Assembly (NCBI GenBank): GCA_945918795.1
Contig: CAMEIT010000002.1
Coordinates: 42-64,041 of the forward strand
DNA length: 64,000 nucleotides
From: an uncultured Clostridia bacterium
Lineage (GTDB): Bacteria > Bacillota > Clostridia > HGM11327
Direction of reading: 5' to 3'
This document shows positions 8,181 to 64,000 of this stretch, piece by piece. Positions within the stretch are counted from its first letter, which is position 1, and every line of letters starts with the position of its first letter. Both the position numbers and the translations under genes were made by a program. Under the pieces are notes generated by a model that saw only the letters and a program-made list of their open reading frames with translations, had not been told where the DNA came from and searched no databases.

Positions 8181-8355
8181 TGTCGGAAACCCAATCCTTT
8201 TATATCAAAATATTCCGTAAAATCAATGCTTTATATTCAATTCGATGTAATTATAACATATATTTCCCGCCAAATCAAGCAAAACGGGCAAATATAATAA
8301 ATCTGCCGACCTTATGGAGAGTCGGCAGACGAGGAGAAGCTGTTATGAATTGAAT

Positions 8356-9807
8356 TTACATTTTAGCAAAAGCATTTTTGAGTGCAGGATAAAGCGACTT
8401 GAATATTTCGTATTTTTTGTCGTACAAAGCGACAGTTTGACTGTCAGGCTTGACTGTGGACTTGATTTTTACAATATTGTTTACGGCATCGTATACATTA
8501 TTATATGCGCCTGAGCCTACCATTGCAAGTATTGCCGCACCGTAAGAGGGACCCTGCTCTGTAACGGGAGATGAGACTGTAACGTTCAGCACGTTTGCGA
8601 TGATTTTCTTCCATATCTCGCTTCTTGCACCTCCGCCGCATATATTCGTAGACGTGATGTTAAGTCCGTTTTTCCTTGCCGACTCAACGCAGTCGCGCAA
8701 TGCAAACGCAACGCCTTCGAGCACGGCAAGACTCATTTGTTCTCTTGTCGTATTCGCACTGATACCTATAAATGCGCCCTTGGCGTTTGTGTCGTTATGC
8801 GGACTTCTTTCTCCCATGAGATACGGCAGAAAAAATACGCTGTTTTTCCCGAGGAGTGGTTCTGAATTTTGTGTTTCGGCAGAATAGTCGCTTGCCTGCA
8901 AAATGTCTTGTATCCACCATTTGTTGCAAGAGGCGGCGGAAAGTATGCAGCCCATGAGATGCCACCTACCTGTTGCGTGCGCAAACGAGTGAAGTGAGTT
9001 GCCCGGGTCCGAAACAAAATTGTCGCCCGATATGAATATGGTGCCGCTCGTGCCGAGCGATATGTTGCAGCTGCCGTTTGCTACCGTGCCCGTGCCGACA
9101 GCCGCGGCGGCATTGTCGCCTGCGCCGGCTGTAACGACAGCATTGGGTAGATTGTATTCTTCCTTGAGCTTGCCCGTGACCTCATAGCTCTCAAAAAGGC
9201 GCGGGAGCCATTCGGGCTTTACGGAGCATATGCGGCACATTTCCTCAGACCAGCACTTGTTTTCAACGTCAAGCAACAGCATACCCGAAGCATCCGAGTA
9301 ATCGCTTGAAAAAACTCCCGTCAGCATATATGCCACGTAATCCTTCGGAAGCATTATCTTTGCTATCCTGCGGAAATTTTCAGGCTCGTTTTCTTTTACC
9401 CACAGTATTTTCGGCGCAGTAAATCCGGCAAAGGCTATGTTTGCGGTAAGGCGTGTAAGCTTGCTTTTGCCTATTTCGTTATTGAGATAATCGGTTTGCT
9501 TTTGACTTCTGCCGTCATTCCAAAGAATTGCAGGGCGTATTACATTGTCGTTTTCATCGAGCATCACAAGACCATGCATTTGTCCGCCGAATGAAACGCC
9601 TGCTATTTCGTTGCTTATGCCGTCGGAAAGCGAGGCGAGAATTTCCTTTGCGGCATCAAGCCAATCGCATGGGTTTTGCTCGCTCCATCCCTCGTAAGGA
9701 TAAAAAACGGGATATTCAACGTTTGCTTCTTTTAATATACGTCCGCTTTTGTCCGCAAGAATACCTTTTGCGGAGCTTGTTCCGAGATCAATGCCAATAT
9801 AGTACAT
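8356..9807 (-). CDS. xylB: Xylulokinase (FGGY carbohydrate kinase)
   Basis: 483 aa with the FGGY N-terminal motif YYIGIDLGTSSAKGIL. Start ATG overlaps the stop of the upstream isomerase (TGATG). Confidence 0.75.
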   Translation of the reverse strand: MYYIGIDLGTSSAKGILADKSGRILKEANVEYPVFYPYEGWSEQNPCDWLDAAKEILASLSDGISNEIAGVSFGGQMHGLVMLDENDNVIRPAILWNDGRSQKQTDYLNNEIGKSKLTRLTANIAFAGFTAPKILWVKENEPENFRRIAKIMLPKDYVAYMLTGVFSSDYSDASGMLLLDVENKCWSEEMCRICSVKPEWLPRLFESYEVTGKLKEEYNLPNAVVTAGAGDNAAAAVGTGTVANGSCNISLGTSGTIFISGDNFVSDPGNSLHSFAHATGRWHLMGCILSAASCNKWWIQDILQASDYSAETQNSEPLLGKNSVFFLPYLMGERSPHNDTNAKGAFIGISANTTREQMSLAVLEGVAFALRDCVESARKNGLNITSTNICGGGARSEIWKKIIANVLNVTVSSPVTEQGPSYGAAILAMVGSGAYNNVYDAVNNIVKIKSTVKPDSQTVALYDKKYEIFKSLYPALKNAFAKM

Positions 9808-35600: not shown

Positions 35601-38600
35601 CGCTCTTGCGCAGTTGTCGGGATTTGCGTAATGCTCGGTGATATTGAGAATATCCGAGTAATTGTCCGAATACGCAAGGATATAGTCTATCTGAGCGCTT
35701 TCGCCCTGAGCAAGACTAAGCTGTACGGCGAGTGACGCGCACGGTGAAAGAGTGCTTCTGCTTAGTGAGTCATAATCAAAGCTTCGGCTGAAAAACGCGG
35801 GATTTGATGATGTTTTGTTACGACCTATAAAGTCGTAGCGTGACGTTATGGGCAAAATAGCTTTGGATTTCGGGCACACAGCCATAACGGCGGCAAACTG
35901 CTTTGATTTTTCGTCCGTTCGCGGTGTTCGCTGAGTTACTATGGCATTGTTATCGCTGAGGTACCTGCTTTCCACAAACATATCCGAGTATGCGGGATGA
36001 GAGTAGCTTTCTTCGAGAGTCTCAAGCGCAGGCTCAAAATAGTCGGCAACTGTAAGCTTTTTTGTTCTGCTGTGAGTGTTTTTTATACGCAGTCTGAATA
36101 CTGCGGCATTTCTGTCGGGGCATACAGTTATATTGAGATTACTTTCAATTCCGCGCACCTTTCCGACAAACGTTATGCTGTCGGGCTTGAACGTCACGCT
36201 GTTGTATGAGCTTTTGCCGTAAACGGGAGAAGGCGTTACCGAATAAGCAAAGCCGCTTTCTTCGTCTTTTATGAAAATAAAATGACCGTACTGTTCTGCA
36301 ATTTCGTCACTTTTCCATTTATTGAGAACTATATCGCCTGCAAAGGCTATGTTTGAACCGGAATTGCTTATGACCATACTCAATGAGCCGTTTGTGAGCA
36401 TTGAGCAGTGGGGATGCTGAGTGATGCCGTTAAAGCTTTCCTCAATGTTTTTTGCATAAATATCGGGAGATTTATCTATTGTCTGTCTGGGGACTGCGTC
36501 AGGCTGAACAACGCTCGGCAGTTTTTCCTGAAGCAGTATTTCGCCTGCTTTTACCTCGGGAGCGCTGTGAAAAAGATTTATCATGCAGTCTTTTTTCAGA
36601 CAGTTTGCGGCGGCAATTAGGCTCATGCCTTCATGATGCGCCATGAATGACTTTATTATATTGTCGGAGTCACCGGACATATCCACAGCCTCGTAAAAAC
36701 CGTATCTCGAGCACATTCCGGATTGCCTGAGCCTTTTCAGATTTTTTGCGGCCTTTTCGGGCGCAAACGGAAGTGCGAGGGCTGTGGCATAAGGTGCCAC
36801 TACATATTCGCCCGTTTTTGTGTGGCGCACAGCCGCATACGGTATTCCGAACGCCTTGTACTGATAGTATTTGTCGCCGTCAAAATGCCAATAGCCCGAT
36901 TCGGAAATACCCCACGGGCGCTTTACCTTCCTTGCATAGCGCATCTGTTCCTCGATGATACCGTCAAATGCGTTGCTCCACAGCGTATTGCCGTAAGTTT
37001 TGAGCAATAAAGCCGGCATTAGATATTCAAACATCGAGCCGCTCCACGATTTTAATATATAACGTCCGCTCCGTTTTACGACTATTCGGGAGAGGCGTTG
37101 CCAATGTTTTATTCCGACCTCGCCCGATATTAACGCATAAAAGCTTGTCTGCCTTGCTTCGGAGGCAAACATATCGTATGCGTATTCGGAGAGCTTTTGC
37201 GCTTCAACGTCAAAGCCTACCGAAAACAAGTCCTTTTTCTCATCGTAAAGCAGTGAGAAATCCATGTTTTTGAGAATCGATTGTACGGACGATATGCTTT
37301 CGTTCAGCTTTATGAGTATTTCGGCGTCGGTAACGGTATCCTTGTATTTGCAAAGCGCCTGCCTTACCGCAACAAGACAGCAGGCAAGATTTCCGTTGTC
37401 TGCGCTCGAGACAAACATAGGGTGGAGGGGCTTTAGCGTTGTTATGTCGTACCAATTGTAAGGATGACCGTTCCACTTTTCGAGCTTGTCAAGCGTGGCA
37501 ATTGATTTTGAAAGCATGAGAACCGCTTCCTTATCGCTTAAAAAGCCAAGCTCTTCTGCCGCGACACAGCCGCAAAGCATCATGCCTATATTTGTAGGCG
37601 ACGTGCGCATGACGGCACCCTTGTACGGCTCCTCCTGGAAATTGTCCGGCGGCAGATAATGCGTTTGCTCCGTACACAGCTCTTTGAAATAATTCCATGC
37701 GCCTTTTGCCGTAAATTCAATGATCTCTTCCGCTTCGGCAGAAAGATTTGTCTCTTTTTCCTTTTTTGCTCGGCTTAATCTGTATACCGCAAACGGCGCA
37801 AGCATGAATGCTCCACCGATGAGCGCCTCAAGAAGTCTTGACGATATGAGAGCCGAAATGAAAAGTGCGACCCCGAACAATGCCGAATATAGCATCACAT
37901 TATAATATGAACGGAGACTGCCTTTGTTTGAGCTTTCCGATTGCATTGCCGTCTGCCATTCGAGGAGCTTTTTCTTTGATTTGAGCCGCGCAATAGTCCT
38001 TATGACGGCATCGATATTGTTGAACGCGCAATCTGCCGCAAGGAGCATATTCAGAATAGCCCTTGTGAAAACATCAAAGCTGATCCTTTTATGCTCGTTT
38101 TGCGTTATTTTAAGCCATAAAACACTCAAAAGCTCAAAAATACACGGCAATACCGACTGTAAACCATACAGTATGACTGCAGACAGGAATATTTCTTTGA
38201 TGAATATGCCTATTATGAGAAGCAGACATATTGCAGGCTCTGTAAGTGTTCTTAAGAGGTTTTCATATATTTTATATTTGGTTGTTCCGTCAAGATAATT
38301 GTATATTCGTTTCCCCGCGCTGTTTCTTGTTATAGGCATAAGATACGGCAAGAGCTGCCAATCGCCGCGCATCCACCTGTGAGCACGCTTCCTGTAAGAA
38401 ATGTAATTTGACGGCACATCGTCAACAAAAACAACGTCCGAAACATACCCCGAGCGAAGATAACCGCCCTCTATCATATCGTGGCTGAGTATGGCATTTT
38501 CGGGGAATCTGCCGTCTATTACGTCACAGAAAACCTTGGAATCGTATATGCCTTTGCCTGCAAAGCTCCCTTTACCGAATATATCCTGATATATTTCGGA

Positions 38601-40517
38601 AACACTGTTTATATACGGCTCGCTTCCGGCGCTCCCTGCCATGAGCATTGAAAAACGTGTTTTCAGTGCCGAAGTGAGGCTTGTATCCATTCTCGGCTGA
38701 AGTATTCCGCGTCCCGATTTTACGGTAGCGGTTGCGGGGTCGAAAACGGGCCTGTTCAGAGGATGATCAGCTGTACCGACGAGAGCAAAAGCACTGCCTA
38801 TGGGCATTTTTGTGTCGGCATCAAGTGTGATGACATATTTCGAGCCTACAATGCTTTCTATTCCCGCACTCGCAAAGCAGAAATCCTTTGTGTTGCCGCT
38901 TTGAAGGAATCTGTTGAACTGAATTACAGCACCGCGCTTGCGCTCCCAGCCGAACCAGCGGTTCTGGCTTTCGTTGAATTGCCTGTCTCTGTGCATATAA
39001 AAGAATATGCGCTTGCCGTATTTGACGTTCAGTGCGTTTATTTTGCTGTTTGTGAATGCTTTTATCTGTTCGTCGTCCACATTTTTGCCGCAGTCGGAAT
39101 CGGCAAAGTCTCCGAGCAGTACGAATGATATATTATCACTTTTGTTGGAGATATAGTTGATCTCCATATTTTCCGCAAGAAGCTCTGCCTGCGCCGTATT
39201 TACGATAAGCGCCGGAGTGACAACGACTGTTGAGCATTCCTTTGGAATGCCCTTTTCAAAATCAAGCCTCAAAAAACGTGTCGGCTTTACAAGCTTTGAG
39301 GCAATGAAATTCACAAGGACAAGCGCCACGGCGCGGCACGGTATATACATTATAAATGCCGAAATGATAAACAGCACCGTGTTTATGCCGCTTTTGCCGA
39401 GCAGGCCGAGCGATATGCCGAATATCATGAATGTGACGGAATAAAGTCCGACGATATACAAAAGCCTTTTGATGAGAGATGTTCCCGAATTGTTTTCAAA
39501 CAGAATTTTGCCTATATGGCACTTTTCTTCATTTGCCTCGGCAAGTATTCTTTCGGCGCACTCGGTTTCGGAAATATGAAGCTTTTTTGCTTTCTGCTTC
39601 AGCTTTTTGCGGTAAATGTTCTTGCTTTCCGAGTCCATTTTTGCATATGTGCCGTCATCTTCCGAGCTGAACACAGCGTCTGCAATGCACACGTTGCCGA
39701 ATATCCTTTCCCAGTCGAACATATTTATCTTCATAAGGCTTGTTATGGAGTTCCTTATTGTGATGACGCAGTTGGATTCTATATGGCGTGAAAATTCGAG
39801 CACTTCGTTTGCCGACATATTTATACGCGAAAGCTCGCTGTCAAGCCAGCGCAAAACGCCTTTGCAGTCAGGCGCATTCTGTATTGCCGTAATGAATGAT
39901 GCAAGCTTTGCCGCATCGTTGACATTGACGAGGCTCTCGAGAGACTCCGCCTTTAAATCGTTTCTTTGGCATACCTCCTCGGCTGTGCGCTTTATATTGC
40001 GTGCGGAAACGAGCGCTTCATAGCGTCTGCAAGCAAGAGTCAATATGTTCCTTGCAAGCGCAAGAGAAAAAGCCGCCGAAAGCGACCATAATTCGTCCAT
40101 AGTCAGCACAAGCTCCTTTTGGTATTGCTCAAGGAACTCGGTGATGCCGTTTTCGGTCACAACTCCGCCGTTGAAATCTATATATTCCACTGCAATCGCG
40201 TATATTCTCGGAAAGCCTTTCATAATCCCGTCCGAAAGCACGGGAATATCGTGCGGTATGTTGTGTATCGATTTTTTTATGCTTTTGAGCTGCATTTTGA
40301 TAGCGTAATAATTATCGACGAACCATTCCGTCGCGGAATCCGGAATTTCCTCATCAAAGCAATGATTTTCCGCTTCTTTGTAATATTCGTCAAATACAGC
40401 CTCCTGCTGTTTGGTAATAACGAAATTACCGAATGGGGTTCTAAATAATCTGTTTGTCACACGCTTGTGCGACACAGCCAACTCTATTGCCAACGACTGT
40501 AATGTGTTTCTGTTCAA
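32628..40517 (-). CDS. Cyclic beta-1,2-glucan synthase-like protein, with N-terminal TM segments, a GT84 glycosyltransferase, a central glucanotransferase region and a C-terminal GH94 phosphorylase domain
   Basis: 2629-aa single ORF. A DxD-type GT region (VITLDADTKMP ... QPRMD) lies between TM clusters. The C-terminus carries a GH94 (cellobiose/chitobiose phosphorylase-like) domain with a GDWNDG motif. TTG start with an AAAGGAA RBS. Confidence 0.65.
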   Translation of the reverse strand: MNRNTLQSLAIELAVSHKRVTNRLFRTPFGNFVITKQQEAVFDEYYKEAENHCFDEEIPDSATEWFVDNYYAIKMQLKSIKKSIHNIPHDIPVLSDGIMKGFPRIYAIAVEYIDFNGGVVTENGITEFLEQYQKELVLTMDELWSLSAAFSLALARNILTLACRRYEALVSARNIKRTAEEVCQRNDLKAESLESLVNVNDAAKLASFITAIQNAPDCKGVLRWLDSELSRINMSANEVLEFSRHIESNCVITIRNSITSLMKINMFDWERIFGNVCIADAVFSSEDDGTYAKMDSESKNIYRKKLKQKAKKLHISETECAERILAEANEEKCHIGKILFENNSGTSLIKRLLYIVGLYSVTFMIFGISLGLLGKSGINTVLFIISAFIMYIPCRAVALVLVNFIASKLVKPTRFLRLDFEKGIPKECSTVVVTPALIVNTAQAELLAENMEINYISNKSDNISFVLLGDFADSDCGKNVDDEQIKAFTNSKINALNVKYGKRIFFYMHRDRQFNESQNRWFGWERKRGAVIQFNRFLQSGNTKDFCFASAGIESIVGSKYVITLDADTKMPIGSAFALVGTADHPLNRPVFDPATATVKSGRGILQPRMDTSLTSALKTRFSMLMAGSAGSEPYINSVSEIYQDIFGKGSFAGKGIYDSKVFCDVIDGRFPENAILSHDMIEGGYLRSGYVSDVVFVDDVPSNYISYRKRAHRWMRGDWQLLPYLMPITRNSAGKRIYNYLDGTTKYKIYENLLRTLTEPAICLLLIIGIFIKEIFLSAVILYGLQSVLPCIFELLSVLWLKITQNEHKRISFDVFTRAILNMLLAADCAFNNIDAVIRTIARLKSKKKLLEWQTAMQSESSNKGSLRSYYNVMLYSALFGVALFISALISSRLLEALIGGAFMLAPFAVYRLSRAKKEKETNLSAEAEEIIEFTAKGAWNYFKELCTEQTHYLPPDNFQEEPYKGAVMRTSPTNIGMMLCGCVAAEELGFLSDKEAVLMLSKSIATLDKLEKWNGHPYNWYDITTLKPLHPMFVSSADNGNLACCLVAVRQALCKYKDTVTDAEILIKLNESISSVQSILKNMDFSLLYDEKKDLFSVGFDVEAQKLSEYAYDMFASEARQTSFYALISGEVGIKHWQRLSRIVVKRSGRYILKSWSGSMFEYLMPALLLKTYGNTLWSNAFDGIIEEQMRYARKVKRPWGISESGYWHFDGDKYYQYKAFGIPYAAVRHTKTGEYVVAPYATALALPFAPEKAAKNLKRLRQSGMCSRYGFYEAVDMSGDSDNIIKSFMAHHEGMSLIAAANCLKKDCMINLFHSAPEVKAGEILLQEKLPSVVQPDAVPRQTIDKSPDIYAKNIEESFNGITQHPHCSMLTNGSLSMVISNSGSNIAFAGDIVLNKWKSDEIAEQYGHFIFIKDEESGFAYSVTPSPVYGKSSYNSVTFKPDSITFVGKVRGIESNLNITVCPDRNAAVFRLRIKNTHSRTKKLTVADYFEPALETLEESYSHPAYSDMFVESRYLSDNNAIVTQRTPRTDEKSKQFAAVMAVCPKSKAILPITSRYDFIGRNKTSSNPAFFSRSFDYDSLSRSTLSPCASLAVQLSLAQGESAQIDYILAYSDNYSDILNITEHYANPDNCARAFELAFEHSKISMQYKRIDSKRFRLANSILSSLYYQKAFRTKAVPCAKTLLWQFGISGDLPIICCKTSGAEKSGLKLILSAYEYISSGNVKADLVLITGDDGYHKSNYDEVYSIVSTSSCRDMIGKKGGIFILKSELNPHECAVIAQSAAVSVYGSEAQIYAQIFFEDKCIKKENIAILPKLIRKDTSKNEEILPKLVFFNGYGGFNEAKSEYTILLDNGQNTPAPWSNVIANADFGTVVTESAGGYTWYKNSRENKLTSWCNDPVSDVPAEAVYIKDDSTMQYINPARIVDGTGQYTVSYGLGYAVYRHSANKLGVTKTVFVPPSDSVKVSLLEIKNESDISKKLSVYYYAECNLSPAVSAVPDNIALTVRKASGIVYAENMNIPENGFMFAGCTGELEAVLSRKSDFFGRTGGFSHPKALDYSSWRASGERVCADCIVLKTSVEIKPHCTGTVVLLLGGAESVQDIQRLKNKYSSPQKAKKLLNDVALHYSSLTRPFKITTNDKALDMLFNNFLMYQAYVCRYHAKTSFYQCSGAYGFRDQLQDVLAFMYCDKNEAKTHILRAARQQFEEGDVRHWWHEATGYGIRTKISDDLVFLPYVSSEYAQFSGDMEIFNEQVPFVRGQEIKEGKNSSFGKAYFSDNTASLYEHCMLALKKSLRIGPHGLPLIGTGDWNDGFDKIGENGKGESVWLAFFIHYVIRGFIKVCGYFNKTDDMKFLAEACNMLERGIKQSAWDGKWYRRAYYDDGAPIGSIECDECKIDIIAQAWAAIADITPNEQIKEALESAEKYLVDEKNGIVKLFWPPFKDTDRNPGYIKAYKCGIRENGGQYTHGAIWLVTAFAMRGEAAKAMRILKMLNPVNHALTKEQAENYKVEPYVVAADVYSASTNVGMGGWTWYTGSAAWMYKTILENILGIKIKNDKIRVNPVVEKDMLPFRVEYHRENGSEKTKYIIDVICSEGNGCLLDGKECPDGEITLIDDGKTHKIVVNIN

Positions 40518-44799: not shown

Positions 44800-47700
44800 A
44801 TGAAAAAAAGATTTTTATTACTGATATTGCCTTTAACGGTATTTTTATGCTTATTTTCGATAAATTCGATGCAGAGCTCATCTGCCGGGACTGTGACGGT
44901 TCAATTTGAATTGGAATCAACGGAGTACGCAAAGCCGGGGGATGAAATTCAACTGAAAATATATGCAAATGTTTCGGGAAGCAAGCTTGCCGCCTTTGAC
45001 TTTGCAATCAATTATAATTCGTCTTTGCTCGAGCCGAAGCATGATGAGTTCGGTGAGTACGCTTATGACGATGACTTTTTCAATTCCCTTGCAAACAGTA
45101 AAAATGTAAGCAGCTATGTTGAAGAAAACGGTACGGGGGTACTGCAAGCTTTATACGCTGCAAGCAGTCTTGAGGCTACATATGTTCCCGAGGGGAAAAC
45201 GCTCTTATATACGTGCTATTTTGTCGTAAAGGCTACTGCATCAGACGGAACGGCAGCTTTCTCGTTGTCGAATCCGGCAGCAAGCTATCGTAGCTCGGGA
45301 GGAAGTCTGACAGCTGTGCCCTCAGGCGACATTACATCGACAACTGCGGCAACGACCGTAAAAAATGAGCTCTCATCGGACAATAATCTCGGCTCGTTAA
45401 CAGTAAGTACGGGCACACTTTCGCCTTCTTTTGACCCCTCTGTAACATCATATACCGTAAATGTGCCGTATGCGACATCGTCAATAACGCTTACCGCTTC
45501 GGCAAATGACGCGCTTTCCACTGTTGTGGGTGCCGGCACAAAGACGCTTGAAGTCGGTGACAATTCTTTTGATATTACGGTTACGGCGCAAAACGGAACA
45601 AAAAAGGTTTATACAGTGACGGTAAACAGAAAAGCCGCTTCAACAGACAACACTTTGCAGTCGTTGACAGTAAGCGAGGGCGCGCTTTCGCCGACATTTG
45701 ATCCGTCTGAAACCGTATATAATGTAACAGTGCCGTACGAGATAACTTCAATAACACTTGCGGCAACGGCAAACGATATACTTTCCACTGTTGCGGGTAC
45801 AGGCACAAAGAACCTTAATATCGGAAATAATTCTTTTGCAATAACGGTCACAGCCGAAAACGGTACTCAAAAGATATACACTGTAAACGTAACAAGAGAA
45901 AAGTGTACCGATAATACTCTGAAGTTGCTTACTGTAAGCGGAGGTACTTTAACTCCGTCATTCAGCCCGTCTGAAACCGTATATAATGTAACAGTGCCGT
46001 ATGAAACAGACAGCATAACTATTACTGCTGAAAAAAATCACGACACGGCAACCGTTACCGGTGCAGGCGTAAAGAGCCTTGCAGTCGGAAGCAATTCTTT
46101 TGAGATAACAGTAACAGCCCAAAACGGTGCACAAAAGAAATACACATTAAATGTTACGAGAGAAAAGTGTGCAGATAACACACTCAAATCGCTTTCGGTA
46201 AGCGGATACCAGCTGGAGCCGTCGTTTGATAAGTCAGTGCTTGAATACGTACTGAGAGTGCCGTATGAGCTTGGCAGTATAACAATATCGGCAGAGAAAA
46301 ATCACAGTACGGCAACACTGACGGGTACGGGAACAATGACACTGCCCGAGTCGGGAAGCACTGTTTTCTCTGTGAAGGTAACAGCACAGAACTCAAATGT
46401 AAAGGAGTATAAAATAACCGTCATCAAAGCGGACCCTTCAACGGATAACACACTGAAGTCGCTTACAACAAACACGGGTACATGGGATAAGGTGTTCAGC
46501 CCGTCTCAGACATCATACGTTGTTACAGTGCCGTATGCCACATCAAGCATAACGCTCTCGGCAACTGTAAATGATGTGCTTTCAACGGCAACAGGCATGG
46601 GCACAAAGACGCTTGTAGTTGGGAACAATACTTTTGAAATAACCGTTACCGCGCAAAGCGGCGATAAAAAGGTATACACCGTTACAGTCAACCGTAAGGC
46701 GGCATCAACGGATAACACGCTCAAATCGCTCACAACGAATACAGGCTCATGGGATAAGGCATTCAACCCGTCCGAAACATCATATAAAGTGACGGTGCCG
46801 TATACGACGTCGGGCATAACGATTACTGCCGCCGTAAATGACGCACTTTCAACTGTTACGGGCGCAGGAAACAAGAGCCTTAATGTAGGTGATAATTCTT
46901 TTGCAATTACGGTAAAGGCTGAAAGCGGCGCTCAAAAGCAATACACTGTAACAGTAACAAGAGAAAAGTGTACGGATAATACACTCAAGTCGCTTTCTGT
47001 AAACGGATATACATTAACTCCGTCATTCAGTCCGTCTGTATCGGAATATAAGCTTAACGTGCCTTATGTGGTAAACAGTATAACTATTTCGGCACAGGCA
47101 AATCATGCCACTGCAACGGTATCGGGCATAGGCACAAAGACGCTTGCTGTCGGAGAGAATACTTTTGCAATAACAGTGACGGCACAAAACGGCACAACAA
47201 AGGTATACACTATTATCGTAACACGCAAAGCGGCATCAACGGATAATAATCTCAAATCATTGACAATAAATACGGGTACGCTTTTGCCGTCATTCAGCCC
47301 GTCTGAAACATCATACGAGGTAACAGTGCCGTATGCCGTATCGAGCATAACGCTCAATGCCGAGGTAAACGATGCACTTTCAACACTTTCGGGCACGGGT
47401 ACGAAAGAGCTTTCAGTCGGGGAAAATGTGTTTGAAATAACGGTTACGGCTCAAAACGGAGCAAAAAAGGTTTATACCGTGACTGTAACGAGGCAAAATG
47501 CTTCAACGGATAATAACTTGAAGTCTCTCACAACGAATACGGGCGAATGGGACAACGCATTTGACCCCGAGCTGACTTCATACATTGTCAGAGTGCCTTA
47601 TGCCGTAACAAGCATAACGCTCAATGCTGTTGTAAACGATGCACTTTCAACACTTTCGGGCGCAGGCGCAAAAGAGCTTTCAGTCGGGGAAAATGTATTT

Positions 47701-50052
47701 GAAATAACGGTTACGTCAGAGGACGGCTCCGATAAAACGTATACCGTAACGGTAAACAGAGACGAACCGTCATCGGATTCGTCGCTCAAATCGATAGCGC
47801 CGTCGGCAGGCACGCTCACACCCGAGTTTGACCCTGAAATAACGGTGTATGATGTGACTGTCGGATATAAGAATGAAACGATTCAGTTTGATTGGGAAAC
47901 GAGCAATCCGGGCGCAAATGTGTTTATAACGGGGGATGATTACCTGGAAGCGGGCGATGTAACGGTATTTACAATAACCGTAATTGCAGAGGACGGCAGC
48001 AGTACATTCTACATAATAAATGTCACCCGTCTCTTGCAGTCAGACGATGCTTCACTGTCCTCGCTTGAGGTTGGCGGCACAAGGCTCAATTTTGACCCCG
48101 AAATAACAGACTATGATGTAGGTGTTCCCGAGGGAATAAAAACAGCAGATATACAATTCACGGTACGTGATGAAAACGCTTCGGCTGTACTTGAGGGAGA
48201 CGTTAATCTTGACAGTGATAAGCCAAACGTGTTCACAATAACCGTTACCGCGGAAAACGGCAACACCAAGGTATATACCATAATAATATCATACAGAGAA
48301 ATTGAATCCGACTCGTCATTGACATCTCTTACCGACAGCACGGGCACCTTGGAGTTTATTCGCGATATAAAGAATTACAGCATAAAAGTGCCGTATTCTA
48401 CCGATGTAATTGAGTTTGAGTACACACTCGGCGGAAAATATGCAACATCCGTACTTGAAGGACCGGAAATGCTTGAGGCAGGAACCGAAAACGAATACAG
48501 ACTGACTGTAATTGCGGAGGATTCTTCGTTTACGGTATATACGATTACGGTATACAGAATGCCTGCTTCCGAGGATTCGGCGCTTAAGTATTTGTCTGTC
48601 AAAGGATATGACATGACGCCTGAGTTTGACCCGGGAGTCACAATATATGATGTGTATATTCCATATTCGGCTGTAACGGCTGTTGTCGAATTTGAGCCGA
48701 ATCATCAGTTTGCAAGCGTTGAGTACAATGCTCCGGATGAGCTTGTTCCGGGTGAAATAAATATATTCACCGTAAGAGTTATTTCCGAAAGCGGAAACGC
48801 AACATTGTATACAATAAGAGTGTTTAGAGACGTTATTTCCGATGATTCATCACTTTCCGAGCTTAAACTCAAAAATGCAGTGCTTGAACCGGAATTTGCA
48901 CCTGACGAGGTAAATTATACGGCGTCTGTACCGTACAGTGTGGCGGTTGCGGAATTTGAATACAAAGCATCTCATATGGGTTCGGATGTTATTATATCGG
49001 GACCTGACGAGCTTGCAGTCGGAGAAAATATTTACAAGATAGTTGTCAAGGCGGAAACGGGCGCACAGACGATATATACGGTTACGATAACAAGGGCTGA
49101 AATGGAAAGCGATTCAACGCTCAAAACGCTTGTTCCGAGCGTGGGCGAGATCGAATTCGATCCTCTTGTTACGGAATACAATATTACACTTGACTGCTTT
49201 ACCGAATTAATAACATTCGAGTATGAGGCAAGCGGTATGTATGCGAGCGTGACATTTAACGGCAATGAAAATCTTACACAGGGAGAAACGAACGTTTTTG
49301 TCATAAGCGTAATAGCTGAGGACGGCTCTCGGACTGATTACACTGTAAATGTGTTCAGGGAGATGATTTCAAGCGACAGCTCTGCCGCAAAGATAACGGT
49401 TATGGGCAAGGAGCTTGACTTGTCATCCGGCAGGAGAGAGTTCTTGATAGATGTTTCGTACGATACCGAAAGGGCAGAGGTTGTTGCGTGGGCAAATGAC
49501 AGCAAGTCAAGCGTTGAAATAAAAAGAGAACGCGAAACACTTGCTATCGGAGAAAACGTAATCACTGTAATAATTACGGCTCAGGACAAGAGCGTTACCG
49601 AATATAAAATAAAAATATTGCGTGATGCCGGTTCAAGCAATGCGTACCTTGAAAAGCTTGAGCCTGAAAACGGAAGCTTCAACGAAGCCTTTGAGGCAAA
49701 CAAGCTCAATTACACTATGACGGTAGGCCAGGAAATAGATAAGCTTGTATTGATTATAAAGCCTGCTCATGAAAAAGCTGTTTTTGAAGTATCGGATACA
49801 AAGCTTGAGTTTGGTGAGAATGTAATTACAATAACGGTAACGTCCGAAAACGGGAATACGGTACTGTACAAGGTACGTGTTATGAGACAGAAGGATTCAT
49901 TCTGGAAAATGATTACGAGTAACACGATATTTACGGTAGGCGGATTCGGCATAACGATATTCATGTTTGTTGCGGCGGCGCTTGCAGTTATCGTGATATG
50001 CGTTGTGATACTTATAATAGTAAAGGTACGTTCGTCAAAGGATAGGAAATAA
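44800..50052 (+). CDS. Large cell-surface protein with a signal peptide, an N-terminal cohesin-like domain, ~17 tandem cadherin-like beta-sandwich repeats and a C-terminal TM anchor
   Basis: 1750 aa. Signal peptide MKKRFLLLILPLTVFLCLFS. The N-terminal domain is cohesin-like (AAFDFAINYNSSLLEP). ~90-aa units recur with ~270-bp periodicity (LSSLTVSTGTLSPSFDPSVTSYTVNVPYATSSITLTA...YTVTVNR). C-terminal TM FGITIFMFVAAALAVIVICVVILII followed by a KVRSSKDRK tail. Confidence 0.7.
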   Translation: MKKRFLLLILPLTVFLCLFSINSMQSSSAGTVTVQFELESTEYAKPGDEIQLKIYANVSGSKLAAFDFAINYNSSLLEPKHDEFGEYAYDDDFFNSLANSKNVSSYVEENGTGVLQALYAASSLEATYVPEGKTLLYTCYFVVKATASDGTAAFSLSNPAASYRSSGGSLTAVPSGDITSTTAATTVKNELSSDNNLGSLTVSTGTLSPSFDPSVTSYTVNVPYATSSITLTASANDALSTVVGAGTKTLEVGDNSFDITVTAQNGTKKVYTVTVNRKAASTDNTLQSLTVSEGALSPTFDPSETVYNVTVPYEITSITLAATANDILSTVAGTGTKNLNIGNNSFAITVTAENGTQKIYTVNVTREKCTDNTLKLLTVSGGTLTPSFSPSETVYNVTVPYETDSITITAEKNHDTATVTGAGVKSLAVGSNSFEITVTAQNGAQKKYTLNVTREKCADNTLKSLSVSGYQLEPSFDKSVLEYVLRVPYELGSITISAEKNHSTATLTGTGTMTLPESGSTVFSVKVTAQNSNVKEYKITVIKADPSTDNTLKSLTTNTGTWDKVFSPSQTSYVVTVPYATSSITLSATVNDVLSTATGMGTKTLVVGNNTFEITVTAQSGDKKVYTVTVNRKAASTDNTLKSLTTNTGSWDKAFNPSETSYKVTVPYTTSGITITAAVNDALSTVTGAGNKSLNVGDNSFAITVKAESGAQKQYTVTVTREKCTDNTLKSLSVNGYTLTPSFSPSVSEYKLNVPYVVNSITISAQANHATATVSGIGTKTLAVGENTFAITVTAQNGTTKVYTIIVTRKAASTDNNLKSLTINTGTLLPSFSPSETSYEVTVPYAVSSITLNAEVNDALSTLSGTGTKELSVGENVFEITVTAQNGAKKVYTVTVTRQNASTDNNLKSLTTNTGEWDNAFDPELTSYIVRVPYAVTSITLNAVVNDALSTLSGAGAKELSVGENVFEITVTSEDGSDKTYTVTVNRDEPSSDSSLKSIAPSAGTLTPEFDPEITVYDVTVGYKNETIQFDWETSNPGANVFITGDDYLEAGDVTVFTITVIAEDGSSTFYIINVTRLLQSDDASLSSLEVGGTRLNFDPEITDYDVGVPEGIKTADIQFTVRDENASAVLEGDVNLDSDKPNVFTITVTAENGNTKVYTIIISYREIESDSSLTSLTDSTGTLEFIRDIKNYSIKVPYSTDVIEFEYTLGGKYATSVLEGPEMLEAGTENEYRLTVIAEDSSFTVYTITVYRMPASEDSALKYLSVKGYDMTPEFDPGVTIYDVYIPYSAVTAVVEFEPNHQFASVEYNAPDELVPGEINIFTVRVISESGNATLYTIRVFRDVISDDSSLSELKLKNAVLEPEFAPDEVNYTASVPYSVAVAEFEYKASHMGSDVIISGPDELAVGENIYKIVVKAETGAQTIYTVTITRAEMESDSTLKTLVPSVGEIEFDPLVTEYNITLDCFTELITFEYEASGMYASVTFNGNENLTQGETNVFVISVIAEDGSRTDYTVNVFREMISSDSSAAKITVMGKELDLSSGRREFLIDVSYDTERAEVVAWANDSKSSVEIKRERETLAIGENVITVIITAQDKSVTEYKIKILRDAGSSNAYLEKLEPENGSFNEAFEANKLNYTMTVGQEIDKLVLIIKPAHEKAVFEVSDTKLEFGENVITITVTSENGNTVLYKVRVMRQKDSFWKMITSNTIFTVGGFGITIFMFVAAALAVIVICVVILIIVKVRSSKDRK

Positions 50053-54991: not shown

Positions 54992-55774
54992 TTATTCGTT
55001 ATTCTGCGGAATTTTTTTGTATTTCCCGTTGCCGATAAACTCTATTACACCCTTATCGCGCAAAATCTGTAATTGTTGCCTTATTTTAGGTCGAATGTTA
55101 TTATTGTCGGGATGCTTTTCGGCAAGCCGATTTTCAAAACGATACACATCCCCAAGTTCAAATTCATGAGGCTCTATTGAATTTACACAATTGAGAATAT
55201 CGAGCAGCCACCCCCTTTGGGCAACATTATCTGTTTTTAATTTATTTGCCAGCTGCATTTTGAATGTAATATTCTTTATGCTTTCAACCTGACCGTTGTT
55301 TATGATGCGTATTCTTCCTTGCTCGGGAATTTTGCCTATAAGTATATTACAGCCGACCCAGCCTGAGCGTTTTGCCGTTGAAGATAACGGATTCCTTTTT
55401 TCAATAATATCGGGAACGAAAAAATATTTCGGGACGATCCAGAAATCAAGCACCGATAATTCTTTTGCCGAATAGCTCATCAAAAAAAGATCGGGATTTT
55501 CATTGCTGTTTATGCGCTCTATCATTGAGGAATATGCCCCGTCTGTTATTTTGACGCCTAATTTGCCTGTTTTGCTTTTCAGCTCATATTGATTATTGCA
55601 ACATGGACAAAAGAAATCCGCAACAGGACTGTTGTTTTTGAAGTGCTCCAATGTTATATTGCCGCATCTTGGGCAGAACATATTCTTGCCTACCCAGGCT
55701 TCAGTCAAAACCCTTGCCTGCTGTGATTTCGAATTGTAATTATATGTTGAATTTGAATAAAGCTTAAGATCCAT
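54992..55774 (-). CDS. DpnI-like (Dam-replacing/DRP family) methyl-directed Type IIM restriction endonuclease
   Basis: Layout is a PD-(D/E)XK core D-x10-E-L-K (PVADFFCPCCNNQYELKSK) next to a Cys4 cluster (CPRCGN...CPCC), plus a C-terminal winged-helix segment IRPKIRQQLQILRDKGVIEF. This is the same arrangement as the DpnI catalytic Asp/Glu/Lys triad and its m6A-recognition wH domain. Start taken at MDLKLYSNS (ATG), which has a GGAG RBS. Confidence 0.6.
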   Translation of the reverse strand: MDLKLYSNSTYNYNSKSQQARVLTEAWVGKNMFCPRCGNITLEHFKNNSPVADFFCPCCNNQYELKSKTGKLGVKITDGAYSSMIERINSNENPDLFLMSYSAKELSVLDFWIVPKYFFVPDIIEKRNPLSSTAKRSGWVGCNILIGKIPEQGRIRIINNGQVESIKNITFKMQLANKLKTDNVAQRGWLLDILNCVNSIEPHEFELGDVYRFENRLAEKHPDNNNIRPKIRQQLQILRDKGVIEFIGNGKYKKIPQNNE

Positions 55775-55837
55775 AAGGCACAACTCCGATTCTTTGTTAC
55801 GGTAAGGCTTATTGTTTTTCAATCACCGCCGGGCATA

Positions 55838-60028: not shown

Positions 60029-60196
60029 GGTGTGCTGCCTCCCGTAATAAAGTATGCTTAATAATTGTAGTATACATTATTTTACCGCACTTGTCAAGAA
60101 AATATATTATTCCGCAATTCACCGTAAACGGAAATATCCGGGACATTTGTGACAATTGATTTTTTCAGAATTGTGTGATATAATTAACAGGTAATT

Positions 60197-60273
60197 GCGT
60201 TCGTAGCTCATCCGGATAGAGCGTAAGACTCCGACTCTTAAGGCGGCAGGTTCGAGTCCTGTCGGACGCACCA
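60197..60273 (+). tRNA. tRNA-Arg (CCG)
   Basis: Acceptor GCGTTCG/CGGACGC (one G-U pair), anticodon loop CTCCGAC, T-loop TTCGAGT, encoded CCA. A terminator-like hairpin AGACACAC...GTGTGTCTTTTT follows. Confidence 0.85.
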
Positions 60274-60550
60274 TCAAGACACACCCAAAAGGAGCGTATA
60301 AAACTCCGATGCGTGTGTCTTTTTCTATGCAAAACAGGGGTAAATTGCCGTTTTTGTGGTAATTTACCCTTTTTGTTGTTTCTTCGCGTATCGCCGTAGG
60401 GATTTGTTCTTCACTCGCTTTTGGAAACCGCAAACCTTTAACGATTGCACAAAAAGGATTTTTGCACGATAAGGAGCGTATGATTTTTTCCGACTTAATC
60501 AACGAAAAAAATGACCGACCGCACTCTTACGAACGCAGTCGGTCGTTTGC

Positions 60551-62179
60551 TTATAAGGTTTCTCTTACTGTTATTCCGCACTCGAACTCGATTTCGATTT
60601 CTTTGTTGGACAGTACGGTGATTTTCCGCACAAGGCTTTTGAACATCACTCGGTCGAACTCTTCAAGTATCTTCCCTGTCTGTAGCAGTTTGGTCACTTC
60701 TTCGATTCGATACGATGCGAGTTGGACTTTTCCTTGCTCGGACAGTATCTCTTCTTTTCTCATAAGCAGTTGGTCAATTTTCATTCCGACCTGCTGACTT
60801 TGATGTTCGTACTCTTTATCGGTAATCTCCCCGTTGTTCCTTATCGTCAGCAGTTCCATCATCTGCTCTTGTAGTTTTTCTATCTCGGCACTCACTTCAT
60901 TTATCGCTGTCGCACAAGAGTCCGTTATTTCGCTCACGATTGCACTTTGCAGTTTTTCGAGTATTTGTTCCTTGTCTCCTATAAGTTCGTTCAGCGCCCT
61001 TACAAACGCTTTTTCAAGGGCTTCTTCCTTGATAGGTCGACTCTTGCAGTATTCCGCGCCCGTGTTTTCGTGTCTTTTGCACACCCATATGTAGTACTTC
61101 TTATATTTGTTGTACTGTTGGTGTCTTCGGTAGGTTTCTCCGCATTCGCCGCATACTATCATTCCACTGAACGGGTATTTCCCTGAAAACTTTCCGCATC
61201 CCGTTTCGCCTGTGCTTCGTAGCGACTGTCTGTTTTGGAACTCTTGCTGTACCATCTCGAATGTTTCTTTCGATATGATAGCCGCGTGACTATCTTCCAC
61301 ATACCAACTCTGTGCGAACCCTTCGTTTTTAATTCGTCTTGGGGATAGGAAGTCAGGAAGGTATGTTTTTTGCAGGTGGCAATCGCCTTTGTACTTCTCA
61401 TTTTGCAGTATCGACTTCACCGTTGACGGATGCCATGTTTCTCTGCCCGATGGTGATGCGATACCATCTCGCTCAAGCCCTTCGGCGATTTCTTTCAGGC
61501 TTTTGCCGTCAAGGAACTCCGCATATATCCTTCTAACCGTTATTGCCTCTTCTGGCACTATTTTTAGCACCGTCCCCTTCTTGTCTCTCGTATATCCAAG
61601 GAAGTGTTTCGTGTTAAGTATTACCTTACCCTCTTGGAACTTTTTCTTGACGCTCCACCTAATATTATTGGATATGCTCCGACTCTCTTCTTCTGCAAGG
61701 CTTGCCATAATCGTAAGGACGAACTCGCTCCGCTCTTGTAGCGTATCGAGGTTTTCTTTCTCGAATATGATTCCGATACCATCTGCTTTCAGTTTTCTTG
61801 CGGTCTGTACGCAGTCGAGTGTGTTTCTTGCGAATCGGCTGACCGATTTCGTAATTATAAGGTCTATCTTTCCGTCTTCGCAGTCCTTTATCATTCGTTT
61901 GAACTGCACTCGCTTGGTATTCTTCCCGCTCAAGCCGGGGTCGGCATAAATGTCAACCATCGTCCAATCGTCATGGCTTGCTATGAGTTTGGTGAAGTGG
62001 TCAACCTGTGCCTCGTAACTGCTTTCCTGTTCTTCGTGGTCGGTCGACACTCGTGCGTATGCAGCCACTCGTATTTTTGGCTTTTGTCCCATCGCTACCG
62101 ACATAGGGTCAAGTCGTTCGGCCCTCGTCTTCGCGGGGATAATCGTAATTTTGGGTTTAGTGTTTGCACAGTTTTCCAT
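60551..62179 (-). CDS. Large serine recombinase (resolvase/invertase N-terminal domain, recombinase domain, zinc ribbon and coiled-coil)
   Basis: IRVAAYARVSTDHEEQ catalytic-Ser motif, C-terminal Cys cluster (CGECG...C) and a coiled-coil region. Start placed at MENCANT, which has an AGGAAA RBS. It overlaps the upstream recombinase stop by ~23 nt. Confidence 0.75.
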   Translation of the reverse strand: MENCANTKPKITIIPAKTRAERLDPMSVAMGQKPKIRVAAYARVSTDHEEQESSYEAQVDHFTKLIASHDDWTMVDIYADPGLSGKNTKRVQFKRMIKDCEDGKIDLIITKSVSRFARNTLDCVQTARKLKADGIGIIFEKENLDTLQERSEFVLTIMASLAEEESRSISNNIRWSVKKKFQEGKVILNTKHFLGYTRDKKGTVLKIVPEEAITVRRIYAEFLDGKSLKEIAEGLERDGIASPSGRETWHPSTVKSILQNEKYKGDCHLQKTYLPDFLSPRRIKNEGFAQSWYVEDSHAAIISKETFEMVQQEFQNRQSLRSTGETGCGKFSGKYPFSGMIVCGECGETYRRHQQYNKYKKYYIWVCKRHENTGAEYCKSRPIKEEALEKAFVRALNELIGDKEQILEKLQSAIVSEITDSCATAINEVSAEIEKLQEQMMELLTIRNNGEITDKEYEHQSQQVGMKIDQLLMRKEEILSEQGKVQLASYRIEEVTKLLQTGKILEEFDRVMFKSLVRKITVLSNKEIEIEFECGITVRETL

Positions 62180-63635
62180 TAATATTTCCTGCCCTCCCGT
62201 TTGTATATTCTTTCGTTGTCTTATATCCATTTTGGAACTCGAATGTAATCGTCCAGTCTTTTATTGTTGCTTTTACAAGGAACTCCGCCATTTGTTCCGT
62301 CATCTCATCCGATTTTCTATATTTCCCTTTTACCATATCTCTCGTTCGTAGATTCTTTATGAGAGTTTCTTGTTCTTTTATCTTTATAAGTATTTTATCG
62401 GTTTCTTCTCGGCATTTGGTTTCGGATATATAACCTTTCGCTCGTAATTGTCGCAGTTCTTGCTCGTTGGCAATAAGTTTTCGCAAGGTCTCTTCTTGCT
62501 CCGTTACGCCATTCACTTCGTTATTAGCATCAATGCTTTCATTGTAGGCTTCAATCAGCAGTCTTGTAACGACTTCGTCTTTGATGTCGTGGGATGGGCA
62601 TTCCTTTGCCCCATAAATATCCTTTTTTCGACAAGTCCACTTTATACACACATATGGTGTTCCGTGTGCCGAAGTTTTTCTTTTGAAACTCGTTCCGCAC
62701 TCTCCGCATATCAGTTTTCCTGATAGCGGATATAATGCCGTAGGTGACCCCATCGGTCGATATTTATTGCTGCGTAACACCATCATCTTCTGTACTTTTT
62801 GGTAGTCTTCACGCGACACAATCGGTTCGTGATCGTCTTGGACATAGTATTGGGGGAGTTCTCCGTAGTTGTACTTCTGCACTTTCATTGTGCTGTATGT
62901 CTTCTGCATAAGACTATCGCCGCAGTACTTTTCGTTTCGCAACATACCCATTACTGTCGATTTACTCCATCGTCCGCCATGCATTGGGGTGTATCCTTCG
63001 TTTTCGAGAATATGGCATATGCTTATAAACGAGTTGCCTTGCAGGTACAGTTCGAAGATTCTTCGTACTATGACCGCTTCTTTCTCGTTTATCACTAACT
63101 TTCCATCGACCATATCGTACCCAAGTATTCGCGTCAGTTCCACACTTCCATTTGCGAATCGTTTCCGTGCCGCCCATTTTTGGTTTTGACTCATCGATAT
63201 TAATTCTTCTTCGGCGAGACTTGCCATAACCGTGAGAATTAAACCGCACTTGGGGTCAAGGGTATGTATATTTTCGGACTCGAATATGATTTCAACTCCT
63301 ATATCTCGGAACTCTCTCACTATTTCCATTAGTTCGACTTTGTTCCGAGCGAATCTCGAAACCGACTTCGTATATATTCTGTCGATTTCACCATTTCGCA
63401 CTTTTTGAAACATCCTTTTGAGTCCATCGCGCTTTTTCATAAATGCACCGCCGATGCCCTCATCAGAGAATAATCCTATATACTCTACGGACTCGTCAAT
63501 TTCGAATCGTCTTTGCCAATAGTTAGACTGGAACGCGAAACTATCTTCTTGGGCATCGCTATCGGTACTGACTCGCACATAGGCACATACCCGTGGCTTC
63601 TCTTCTTTTTTCGTAGGTATCTCTTGAATAATCAT
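62157..63635 (-). CDS. Large serine recombinase (second paralog in the tandem pair)
   Basis: RVCAYVRVSTDSDAQ catalytic motif, recombinase domain and a CGECG zinc ribbon. AAAGGAG RBS. Confidence 0.8.
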   Translation of the reverse strand: MIIQEIPTKKEEKPRVCAYVRVSTDSDAQEDSFAFQSNYWQRRFEIDESVEYIGLFSDEGIGGAFMKKRDGLKRMFQKVRNGEIDRIYTKSVSRFARNKVELMEIVREFRDIGVEIIFESENIHTLDPKCGLILTVMASLAEEELISMSQNQKWAARKRFANGSVELTRILGYDMVDGKLVINEKEAVIVRRIFELYLQGNSFISICHILENEGYTPMHGGRWSKSTVMGMLRNEKYCGDSLMQKTYSTMKVQKYNYGELPQYYVQDDHEPIVSREDYQKVQKMMVLRSNKYRPMGSPTALYPLSGKLICGECGTSFKRKTSAHGTPYVCIKWTCRKKDIYGAKECPSHDIKDEVVTRLLIEAYNESIDANNEVNGVTEQEETLRKLIANEQELRQLRAKGYISETKCREETDKILIKIKEQETLIKNLRTRDMVKGKYRKSDEMTEQMAEFLVKATIKDWTITFEFQNGYKTTKEYTNGRAGNINGKLCKH

Positions 63636-64000
63636 TTTTCACGCTCCTTTCTTGTTTGCCTTTCGGCTCTTTCGACTGGATTTGAACTGCGATTAAAAAT
63701 TTGTCCCGCCCTTTTTATTGGGCAGGACAAACAATACCGTGCTCACCTATAAAAGTCCAGACAAAAACCGCCTTAATCTGAAACTTTTTTGATAATTCTT
63801 TCCTTCTCTGACGAAGTAATTAAACCCCGCTTCAAAAGGCTTTTTATGACGCTTTCAATTATCTGTTTTTCCATCGTCTTCACCGTCCTTTTTGCCGAGC
63901 TGTTTAATAATCTGATTAGCACCCGTAGCCGTCAGTCCGCTTGCTCCGCCGATGACGATTGCCACCACGATGTTCGGTGCCGGGATAATGCTCGGCACGG

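Follow-up and report, generated by a model that had tools for sequence, protein, structure and literature searches.

Tandem large serine recombinase genes at a prophage end abutting the CCA terminus of a tRNA-Arg gene in an uncultured Clostridia bacterium, and the probable use of many tRNA genes as integration sites

The stretch of DNA analysed here, referred to as the window, comprises 64,000 nucleotides of an uncultured Clostridia bacterium (GenBank assembly GCA_945918795.1, contig CAMEIT010000002.1, positions 42 to 64,041). Close to its right-hand end lies an intact tRNA-Arg(CCG) gene followed by two genes, rec1 and rec2, for large serine recombinases (LSRs). As judged from sequence comparison, which supplies the evidence throughout, positions 60274-64000 quite probably represent the end, proximal to the left attachment site (attL), of a siphovirus-like prophage that integrates at tRNA CCA ends by means of a multi-LSR module. 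The window itself shows the attL side only. The acceptor stem of the tRNA, read from the sequence, pairs correctly, and there is no shift in G+C content across the region. The features of the locus are collected in Table 1.

The first-pass annotation had described the tRNA-Arg(CCG) gene and, behind it, two co-oriented, overlapping LSR genes of 542 and 492 aa, each with a catalytic RVSTxxQ motif and a zinc ribbon. ARAGORN, Rfam, the open reading frames (ORFs) and the domain searches bear this out. The two genes are indeed co-oriented with each other and overlap by 23 nt, with the correction that both are antisense to the tRNA; they lie on the minus strand and converge on the plus-strand tRNA-Arg gene. 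An alternative rec1 start at 62230 would give a protein of 559 aa and an overlap of 74 nt; the 542-aa form, starting at 62179, is the call in a public assembly. Resolvase, Recombinase and Zn_ribbon_recom domains were found in both proteins with E values of 1e-11 to 1e-34 (PF00239 at 6.7e-34 in rec1 and 1.6e-24 in rec2; PF07508 and PF13408 in both), and the RVSTD..Q serine motif reads YARVSTDHEEQ in rec1 and YVRVSTDSDAQ in rec2. The solved LSRs matching both proteins are 3g13 (catalytic domain), SPbeta SprA (9dxh) and the A118 integrase (4kis). The C-terminal 100-130 residues are rich in E, K, Q and L and heptad-like on a reading of the sequence. The terminator that the same annotation placed further to the right (63699-63732, minus strand) stands, and the small cargo ORFs it listed there proved to be the 3' part of a holin gene.

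Table 1. Features of the tRNA-Arg locus and the prophage end in the window
Feature	Position	Strand	Basis and remarks
Sigma-70-like promoter of the tRNA-Arg gene	60156..60184	+	TTGATT-17-TATAAT with TG extension, host side; consensus scan only
tRNA-Arg(CCG)	60197..60273	+	ARAGORN; Rfam 61.6 bits; intact, CCA encoded; B arm of the attachment site formed by its 3' part
Inferred crossover dinucleotide, the CA of CCA; core of attL and junction of host and phage	60272..60273	.	L002/L003 and phage-relative alignments; reconstructed attP/attR
P' arm TCAAGACACACCCAAAAGGAGCGT	60274..60297	+	Single copy in window; kept at 82 distinct junctions; imperfect inverted repeat of P arm TCAATGACGAACAAAAAGGAGCGT
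Phage-borne hairpin AAGACACAC...GTGTGTCTT and T-run directly 3' of tRNA	60276..60324	+	Sequence reading; inner stem 60291-60307 from terminator scan
Second terminator-like hairpin inside conserved end module	60336..60379	+	Terminator scan
Non-coding P' module, ~240 bp, common to phages and recombinase-less cassettes	60274..60512	.	Conservation
Intrinsic terminator after rec1	60513..60544	-	Terminator scan
rec1, LSR, 542 aa, adjoins attachment site	60551..62179	-	ORF, domains, structure matches
rec2, LSR, 492 aa, stop overlapping rec1 start	62157..63635	-	ORF, domains, structure matches
Intrinsic terminator after lysis genes, upstream of rec2	63699..63732	-	Terminator scan
Phage holin gene, 3' part, runs off window	63855..64000	-	Homology to 103-aa gene in L080/L005

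Two metagenome contigs from the same host, L002 and L003, are 98.6-99.6% identical to the left flank of the window, and their similarity to it ends exactly after position 60273, the A of CCA. Beyond the CCA they continue with AAAAAGCACTTGTTTTGGCG..., a hairpin and then a promoter; the sequence that follows the CCA in these contigs is also cited as AAAAAGCACTTGTTTTGGCGTACC. The phage relatives, for their part, align to the window from 60269-60274 onwards only. Together the alignments place the host/phage junction exactly at the CA of CCA, and the bacterial attachment site (attB) without the element would read tRNA-CCA followed by AAAAAGCAC.... The element is missing in L002 and L003, where 143-178 bp are visible past the tRNA, so that the tRNA-Arg site shows a presence/absence polymorphism and the two contigs are likely unoccupied sites. 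The first-pass annotation had taken the locus for the boundary of an integrated element and proposed looking for an empty site in related genomes; the data support the boundary of a discrete, polymorphic integrated element, and L002 and L003 are candidates for the empty site.

The same annotation had left the nature of the element open between an integrative and conjugative element (ICE), a prophage and a cassette. About 15 viral contigs in IMG/VR carry the same pair of recombinase genes with protein identities of 92-100%. Phage gene content was read within 10 kb of rec2, terminase, portal and major capsid genes being placed farther away than this, and the rest of the element was judged by the viral class in IMG/VR. 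In the relatives, the 10 kb upstream of rec2, corresponding to the DNA past base 64000, encode a tape-measure protein (PHROG E 4.7e-112), tail proteins, a tail-fibre-like protein, a small conserved protein and a holin; this set of tail, tape-measure and lysis genes was found in at least 10 relatives. The 103-aa homologue in L080 of the last ORF of the window matches Phage_holin_5_2 (Pfam) and PHROG holins. No conjugation genes (relaxase, coupling protein, VirB4) were found within 10 kb next to the LSRs. Because tail, tape-measure and holin genes lie upstream of rec2 and the relatives in IMG/VR are viral, the element is read from these comparisons as a temperate long-tailed siphovirus-like prophage, neither an ICE nor a cassette resembling the staphylococcal cassette chromosome (SCC). 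With a single P' motif and no P arm in the window, the element extends rightwards out of it. The rec1 protein was found at 94% identity or more in nine GTDB species representatives.

The other end of the element could be read from relatives. A 68-kb contig, 3300008100_000221, found via a recurrent non-tRNA left flank, also holds a 93-94% identical rec2-rec1-P'-tRNA-Arg end; in it the P and P' arms lie on the same strand, one copy each, about 58.5 kb apart. Matches to the P arm across all loci number 26. In eight of these P' comes next (TTGA-CA-TCAAGACAC), and in two a variant P' does; such junctions are of the phage attachment site (attP) type, from circular forms or tandem elements. Each of the remaining matches is followed by a different, mostly hairpin-forming host sequence. 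In L217, for example, the P arm is followed by AAAAACAACCGCAACCGCGG, which is exactly the sequence after the CCA of the same tRNA-Arg in L197. At the right attachment sites (attR) of the relatives, the P arm and CA thus pass directly, with no piece of tRNA in between, into the host sequence downstream of the CCA; the direct repeat of the tRNA-Arg 3' segment that had been expected at the other end is not present in them.

The rebuilt attP is an imperfect inverted repeat of about 50 bp, ACGCTCCTTTTTGTTCGTCATTGA-CA-TCAAGACACACGCAAAAGGAGCGT. Read outward from the CA, the P arm is TCAATGACGAACAAAAAGGAGCGT and the P' arm TCAAGACACACGCAAAAGGAGCGT, identical at positions 1-4 (TCAA) and 14-24 (AAAAGGAGCGT); the P arm terminates at the core as ...GTTCGTCATTGA-CA. 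The structure is that of a serine-integrase attP with a 2-bp non-palindromic core, which accounts both for a constant orientation and for the fact that no repeat is made. A search of IMG/VR with the P' pattern returned no contigs beyond those already known, and IMG/VR searches with the third LSR described below and with a relaxed P-arm pattern returned a single contig with the whole prophage. The contigs of the other relatives are shorter than 58.5 kb and end before attR. The left flank of L012 was also considered as an attP and was rejected, its 20-mer being absent from all other viral contigs; it is more likely a non-tRNA pseudo-site ending in GCCGCCA.

Some further details of the attachment regions were observed. 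In L270, L269, L236 and L265 a relic resembling a tRNA 3' end, GGTTCAAATCCCCGTGGACGCCTGCC, lies 45-70 nt upstream of the crossover on the P side; it is conserved and falls within the P-side region of the phage, outside the 25-bp P arm. On the P' side, the AAGGAGCGTAT motif of the P' arm (60289-60299) recurs 180 bp inward at 60471-60481, where it forms a sequence like a ribosome-binding site with an ATG; from there a short start, MI(F/S)SDLINEK, is conserved between the window and the cassette loci. This second copy could be a second binding site or belong to a leader peptide. The P' module has no Rfam family and no match among deposited phage genomes, and searches of plasmid and phage DNA with the whole region gave weak LSR-domain matches only. 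The hairpin and T-run at 60276-60324 likely substitute for the tRNA's own terminator.

The complete relative 3300008100_000221 contains a third LSR gene, here called LSR-x, as a 561-aa ORF about 250 bp from the P arm. Its product is 43% identical to rec1 and 38% to rec2 and has all three LSR domains; genes for WYL, Cro/C1 helix-turn-helix (HTH), methylase and SNF2 proteins follow it. Since LSR-x lies next to the P arm and rec2-rec1 next to P', the circular order would be lysis - rec2 - rec1 - attP - LSR-x. The rec1 and rec2 proteins are 34% identical to each other, and their overlapping gene pair is kept in phage relatives down to identities of 59% (rec1) and 46% (rec2). Among close relatives rec1 is the more conserved (98%, compared with 90-93% for rec2), and it is the gene adjoining P' in about 30 relatives. 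In L235 (ORF 7408-8991), L260 and L228 a different plus-strand LSR gene runs into the P' junction, its last codons lying within P', a layout that recalls the attP-inside-integrase arrangement of Roseburia phage Shimadzu.

The range of targets was determined from every junction with the P' motif in the genome, viral and metagenome collections. There are 82 distinct junctions, and 71 of them are CCA-terminal. A complete tRNA gene ends exactly at the junction in 45 of the 82, always in the same orientation. These genes represent 14 isoacceptors: Arg-CCG, Arg-CCT, Ala-CGC, Ala-GGC, Ser-GGA, Ser-CGA, Leu-CAG, Leu-TAG, Leu-CAA, Val-CAC, Val-GAC, Gly-CCC, Tyr-GTA and Pro-AGG. In a more distant relative the site is Glu-CTC. 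Further types are attP junctions, CCA-ending sites that are not tRNA genes, and short copies of tRNA 3' ends. A single specific attB per enzyme does not describe such a set, in which 14 isoacceptors are used. Pairs of loci were compared over 3370 nt spanning P', rec1 and rec2: the window (Arg-CCG) and L005/L213 (Ser-GGA) are 99.9% identical, L099 (Leu-TAG) and L100 (Gly-CCC) 99.3%, and L015 (Arg-CCG) and L224 (an Ala-type end) 100%. Near-identical modules at different tRNAs argue against one integrase variant per tRNA. The acceptor strands beside P' are wholly different among the sites, and because each pairs with its own 5' strand the tRNA 3' ends are host DNA. As a control, genome loci were divided by their rec1 identity: at 60% or more, 13 of 14 have an opposite-strand tRNA within 1.5 kb, and at about 40%, 5 of 66 do; those five also abut a CCA, and their hairpin ends are different. 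The P' motif is retained in relatives whose rec1 is 60-69% identical.

The two halves of the bacterial site were then compared. Strong conservation among 38 distinct tRNA arms is confined to two blocks, GGTTCRANTCC and the final CCA. The downstream halves, taken from the attR junctions and the candidate empty site, have little in common beyond a tendency to an A-rich start, and a resident P' can itself fill this half-site, giving tandem arrays. Because the downstream half is so variable, we infer that recognition rests mainly on the tRNA half, that is, the T arm, the acceptor strand and the CCA. Zinc-ribbon motifs are shifted by 5 bp between attB and attP. The TCC lies 12 nt from the CA in the tRNA arm and 17 nt from it in the P arm, and a 5-bp zinc-ribbon offset between the two arms is suggested as a lead only.

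Several points weigh against this interpretation of the locus and are gathered here. When the tRNA arms were compared with the P and P' arms by position weight matrices, the best offsets were 4-5 bp, with scores that were all negative and weak. The 82 junctions include eleven with an end other than CCA (6 attP, 3 of a ...CTA class and 2 others). The far end of the window's own prophage lies beyond 64000, and attR and the third LSR are defined from one complete 58.5-kb relative. The visible sequence past the tRNA in L002 and L003 is short, so that another occupant is conceivable. The same P and P' arms also occur in loci that lack rec1 and rec2: in L233 the lysis genes directly adjoin P', in L256, L246 and L194 another LSR adjoins the P arm, and the recombinase-less cassettes described below have attachment sites with no resident LSR at all. 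An LSR on the P side could thus be the true integrase.

Such a role was considered for LSR-x, with rec1 and rec2 left to control excision, to serve a second target, to carry out an inversion or simply to hitch-hike. The place of LSR-x beside the P arm, ahead of the WYL, Cro/C1 HTH, methylase and SNF2 genes, is the canonical position of an integrase at the start of a prophage, the same or another LSR is found beside the P arm in L256, L246, L194 and L269, and the P' module of L233 manages without rec1 and rec2. Against this stand the adjacency of rec1 to P' in the many relatives noted above, the co-variation of the rec1 clade (60% identity or more) with tRNA adjacency and the P' motif, the intact and overlapping state of rec2-rec1 across deep divergence, and the occurrence of LSR-x together with rec1 and rec2 in one contig only. 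LSR-x as the true integrase is accordingly rated as unlikely, and the reading adopted here is that rec1 and/or rec2 presumably catalyse integration. The division of labour among the LSRs, like the manner in which the tRNA arm is read, can be proposed from gene order and site comparison only as an expectation. We know of no common signature for recombination directionality factors.

Classical integration into a tRNA gene, with a crossover inside the gene (T loop), a replacement 3' end carried by the element and direct repeats of 20 nt, appears very unlikely. Near the junctions of L098, L016, L197, L232 and L265 the local tRNA 3' end is indeed copied directly over 20-23 nt; however, these copies belong to separate small modules that can lie to either side of the element. 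Furthermore, modules that are 99.3-100% identical abut tRNAs with unrelated acceptor stems, and attR consists of the P arm, CA and the host sequence after the CCA. A T-loop crossover and a 20-nt target duplication were both rejected on these grounds.

An ICE or SCC-like cassette mobilised by a pair resembling CcrAB is scarcely credible. The first-pass annotation had called paired serine recombinases a hallmark of SCC-like cassettes and of some ICEs or prophages; the grouping of several LSR genes stands, but the likeness to SCC goes no further. LSR genes in tandem, as pairs or triplets, typify SCC elements and Streptococcus ICEs (PMC4701971), and the majority of distant rec1 homologues, Streptococcus loci included, carry a second LSR directly upstream. 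The genes directly upstream here are nevertheless those for holin, tail fibre, tail and tape measure, the relatives are filed as viral in IMG/VR, the 10 kb examined contain no conjugation gene, and the target is not rlmH.

The remaining alternative, an old, fixed and inactive remnant beside the tRNA by coincidence, which the first-pass annotation had named as the outcome that would count against a discrete insertion, is dismissed as most improbable: solo rec1 and P' remnants do exist beside host ribosomal-protein genes (L097), but same-host contigs lack the element, neither recombinase gene is broken, the recombinase end recurs with 99.9% identity behind a different tRNA elsewhere, and the same junction recurs at 45 tRNA genes. 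The module in L097 (9887-11983) lies between the host ribosomal-protein/RpoA operon region and a tRNA-Ala gene and is a deletion remnant of the prophage.

The phage shares its attachment sites with smaller elements. Behind many P' modules there are no recombinase genes but a PmbA/TldD-like gene pair or other cargo. L261 contains a complete 3.2-kb cassette, in the P' orientation, bounded by P' (7282) and the P arm (about 10500), and its downstream host sequence is the same as that of the 58.5-kb prophage. In L206 two cassette units lie in tandem, 3.4 kb apart. PmbA/TldD cassettes of 3.2-3.4 kb with phage-type P'/P bounds were found in L261, L206, L192, L194, L205 and L265, and at tRNA genes cassettes are arrayed in tandem. 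As elements they may lack autonomy and depend on mobilisation in trans.

Mimics of tRNA ends were observed as a separate kind of module, 110-260 bp long, downstream of tRNA-Arg, tRNA-Ala and tRNA-Val genes. They lie to the left of P' in L098 (about 2990-3190), L197, L192, L212, L219 and L247, and to the right of the element in L232, L265 and L269. They open with a terminator hairpin, after which part of the local tRNA 3' end is repeated in inverted form; a conserved segment containing ACGCTATTNCG follows, and last comes a direct copy, 20-21 nt long and terminating in CCA, of the tRNA 3' end. A phage or cassette may follow the CCA of the mimic rather than that of the tRNA, and two mimics stand in tandem in L192.

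Other junctions and lineages were noted besides. A recurrent junction in L191, L199, L216, L226, L230, L240 and L245 reads ...GCTTTGCTTCGTCCGCTA|TTAAGACACACGC and ends in CTA, not CCA; it may be an attP, or a lineage whose core is TA may use it as its site. In addition, LSR lineages with about 40% identity to rec1 stop within a few hundred bp of a tRNA gene: tRNA-Cys in L132 and L139, tRNA-Leu-CAA in L154 and L157, and tRNA-Met in L168. In these five loci the element begins right after the CCA with a different hairpin, and targeting of CCA ends may be broader than this phage family.

Exact-protein look-up found no record of rec2, and the exact look-ups of rec1 and of an AraC neighbour reach only a chimeric 17.5-kb contig, L001/L004 (GCA_019972995.1, JAIFIP010001108.1). 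This public contig of a metagenome-assembled genome matches the window up to 62397, inside rec2, and its positions 1-717 are AT-rich, probably eukaryotic DNA with a gene for a Ras/Rab-like GTPase. In its host part the window contains very large ORFs at 32628-40517 (minus strand, 2629 aa) and 44800-50052 (plus strand, 1750 aa), and window positions 54992-55822 (minus strand) are annotated in the L001 gene table as coding for a DpnI-like restriction enzyme.

In their Resolvase-Recombinase-zinc-ribbon layout and apparent C-terminal coiled-coil-like region, rec1 and rec2 resemble the phiC31, Bxb1, A118/LI and SPbeta SprA integrases. The attachment site is likewise of the phiC31 kind, with an attP of about 50 bp, imperfect inverted arms, a 2-bp non-palindromic core, no target duplication and an integrase gene adjoining attP. 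The phiC31, Bxb1, A118 and SprA integrases have one specific attB each, whereas here the CCA ends of at least 14 isoacceptors serve as attB, the second half-site is essentially unconstrained, and there are two or three LSR genes instead of one. SCC is a non-phage cassette at rlmH. As with its CcrA and CcrB, two different LSRs stand side by side, and insertion falls at the very 3' terminus of a conserved translation-apparatus gene, which is kept active; unlike SCC, the element described here is a tailed prophage with many alternative targets, the tRNA CCA end in place of rlmH, and the likeness of rec1/rec2 to CcrA/CcrB is one of layout.

Streptococcus ICEs have been described with triplets of serine integrases, a conserved tandem co-oriented LSR module at the end of the element (Ambroset et al. 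2016, PMC4701971). Their junction repeats are very short, 2-8 bp, and they insert into and disrupt mutT, traG and hsdM (PMC4701971). Several tandem co-oriented LSR genes at the element end and very short repeats at the junctions are common to both, and the distant Streptococcus homologues of rec1 are tandem too; in the present case, in contrast, the second and third LSR genes flank attP, the element is not conjugative but a phage, and the target gene is preserved. Multi-LSR modules are widespread. Phages and islands with tyrosine integrases use tRNA 3' regions as landing sites and leave the tRNA functional (Williams 2002, as cited in PMC12884075). Such integrases use one specific tRNA each, with a crossover inside the gene and duplication of an identity block of 15-50 bp. 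The present system differs in its serine recombinases, in a 2-bp core beyond the last base pair, in duplicating nothing and in using many tRNAs.

Multi-targeting LSRs such as TndX/TnpX and those of Durrant et al. 2022 (PMC10083194) similarly use many target sites with a short common core, but what they recognise is a degenerate motif and not the end of a tRNA. Nowhere in its full text does that large LSR survey (PMC10083194) mention tRNA. Roseburia phage Shimadzu, like the phage described here a siphophage of gut Clostridia with an LSR integrase, was reported with a second copy 'inserted in a tRNA' and at other positions, and the tRNA insertion was not analysed there (bioRxiv 10.1101/575076). 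Unlike the present phage it has one LSR, whose gene contains attP, and no P'-module relation was found in deposited phage genomes. In the full-text literature searched, coverage of which is incomplete and leaves novelty unproven, no serine integrase was found described as using the CCA ends of tRNA genes.

Integration would then proceed by conservative serine-recombinase recombination between the attP of about 50 bp and a tRNA CCA end, the CA crossover dinucleotide of attP being matched to the last two bases of the chromosomally encoded CCA. The tRNA is left intact, with a new terminator hairpin brought by the phage directly behind it, and the target is the CCA end of many tRNA genes, not one gene. 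The enzymes would be those of the phage multi-LSR module, the overlapping rec2-rec1 beside the P' arm and LSR-x beside the P arm, so that in the circular genome, on the model of the complete relative, three LSR genes would surround attP. A more tentative extension, which we regard as somewhat doubtful, is that attB is generic: one half-site would be read through common tRNA features (the T-loop/T-stem junction and the encoded CCA), and the other could be nearly any sequence. One phage could in that case lysogenise many species and loci and mobilise recombinase-less P/P' cassettes, and the two or three LSRs may split the work as a heteromeric integrase, for example between the phage arms and the tRNA arm.

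Serine integrases are prized, in biology and in genome engineering, because each has a single target that is short and specific. Precise insertion behind the CCA of many tRNA genes, by a natural family, would represent a new targeting logic for these enzymes. The practical yield would be a 50-bp attP together with a defined set of natural attB variants. If true, this targeting would explain how one gut phage lineage comes to be present in at least nine Clostridia species. It would also give a testable role to the widespread and unexplained tandem and triplet LSR modules, and it would show small recombinase-less cassettes sharing the attachment sites of a phage and accumulating at tRNA genes.

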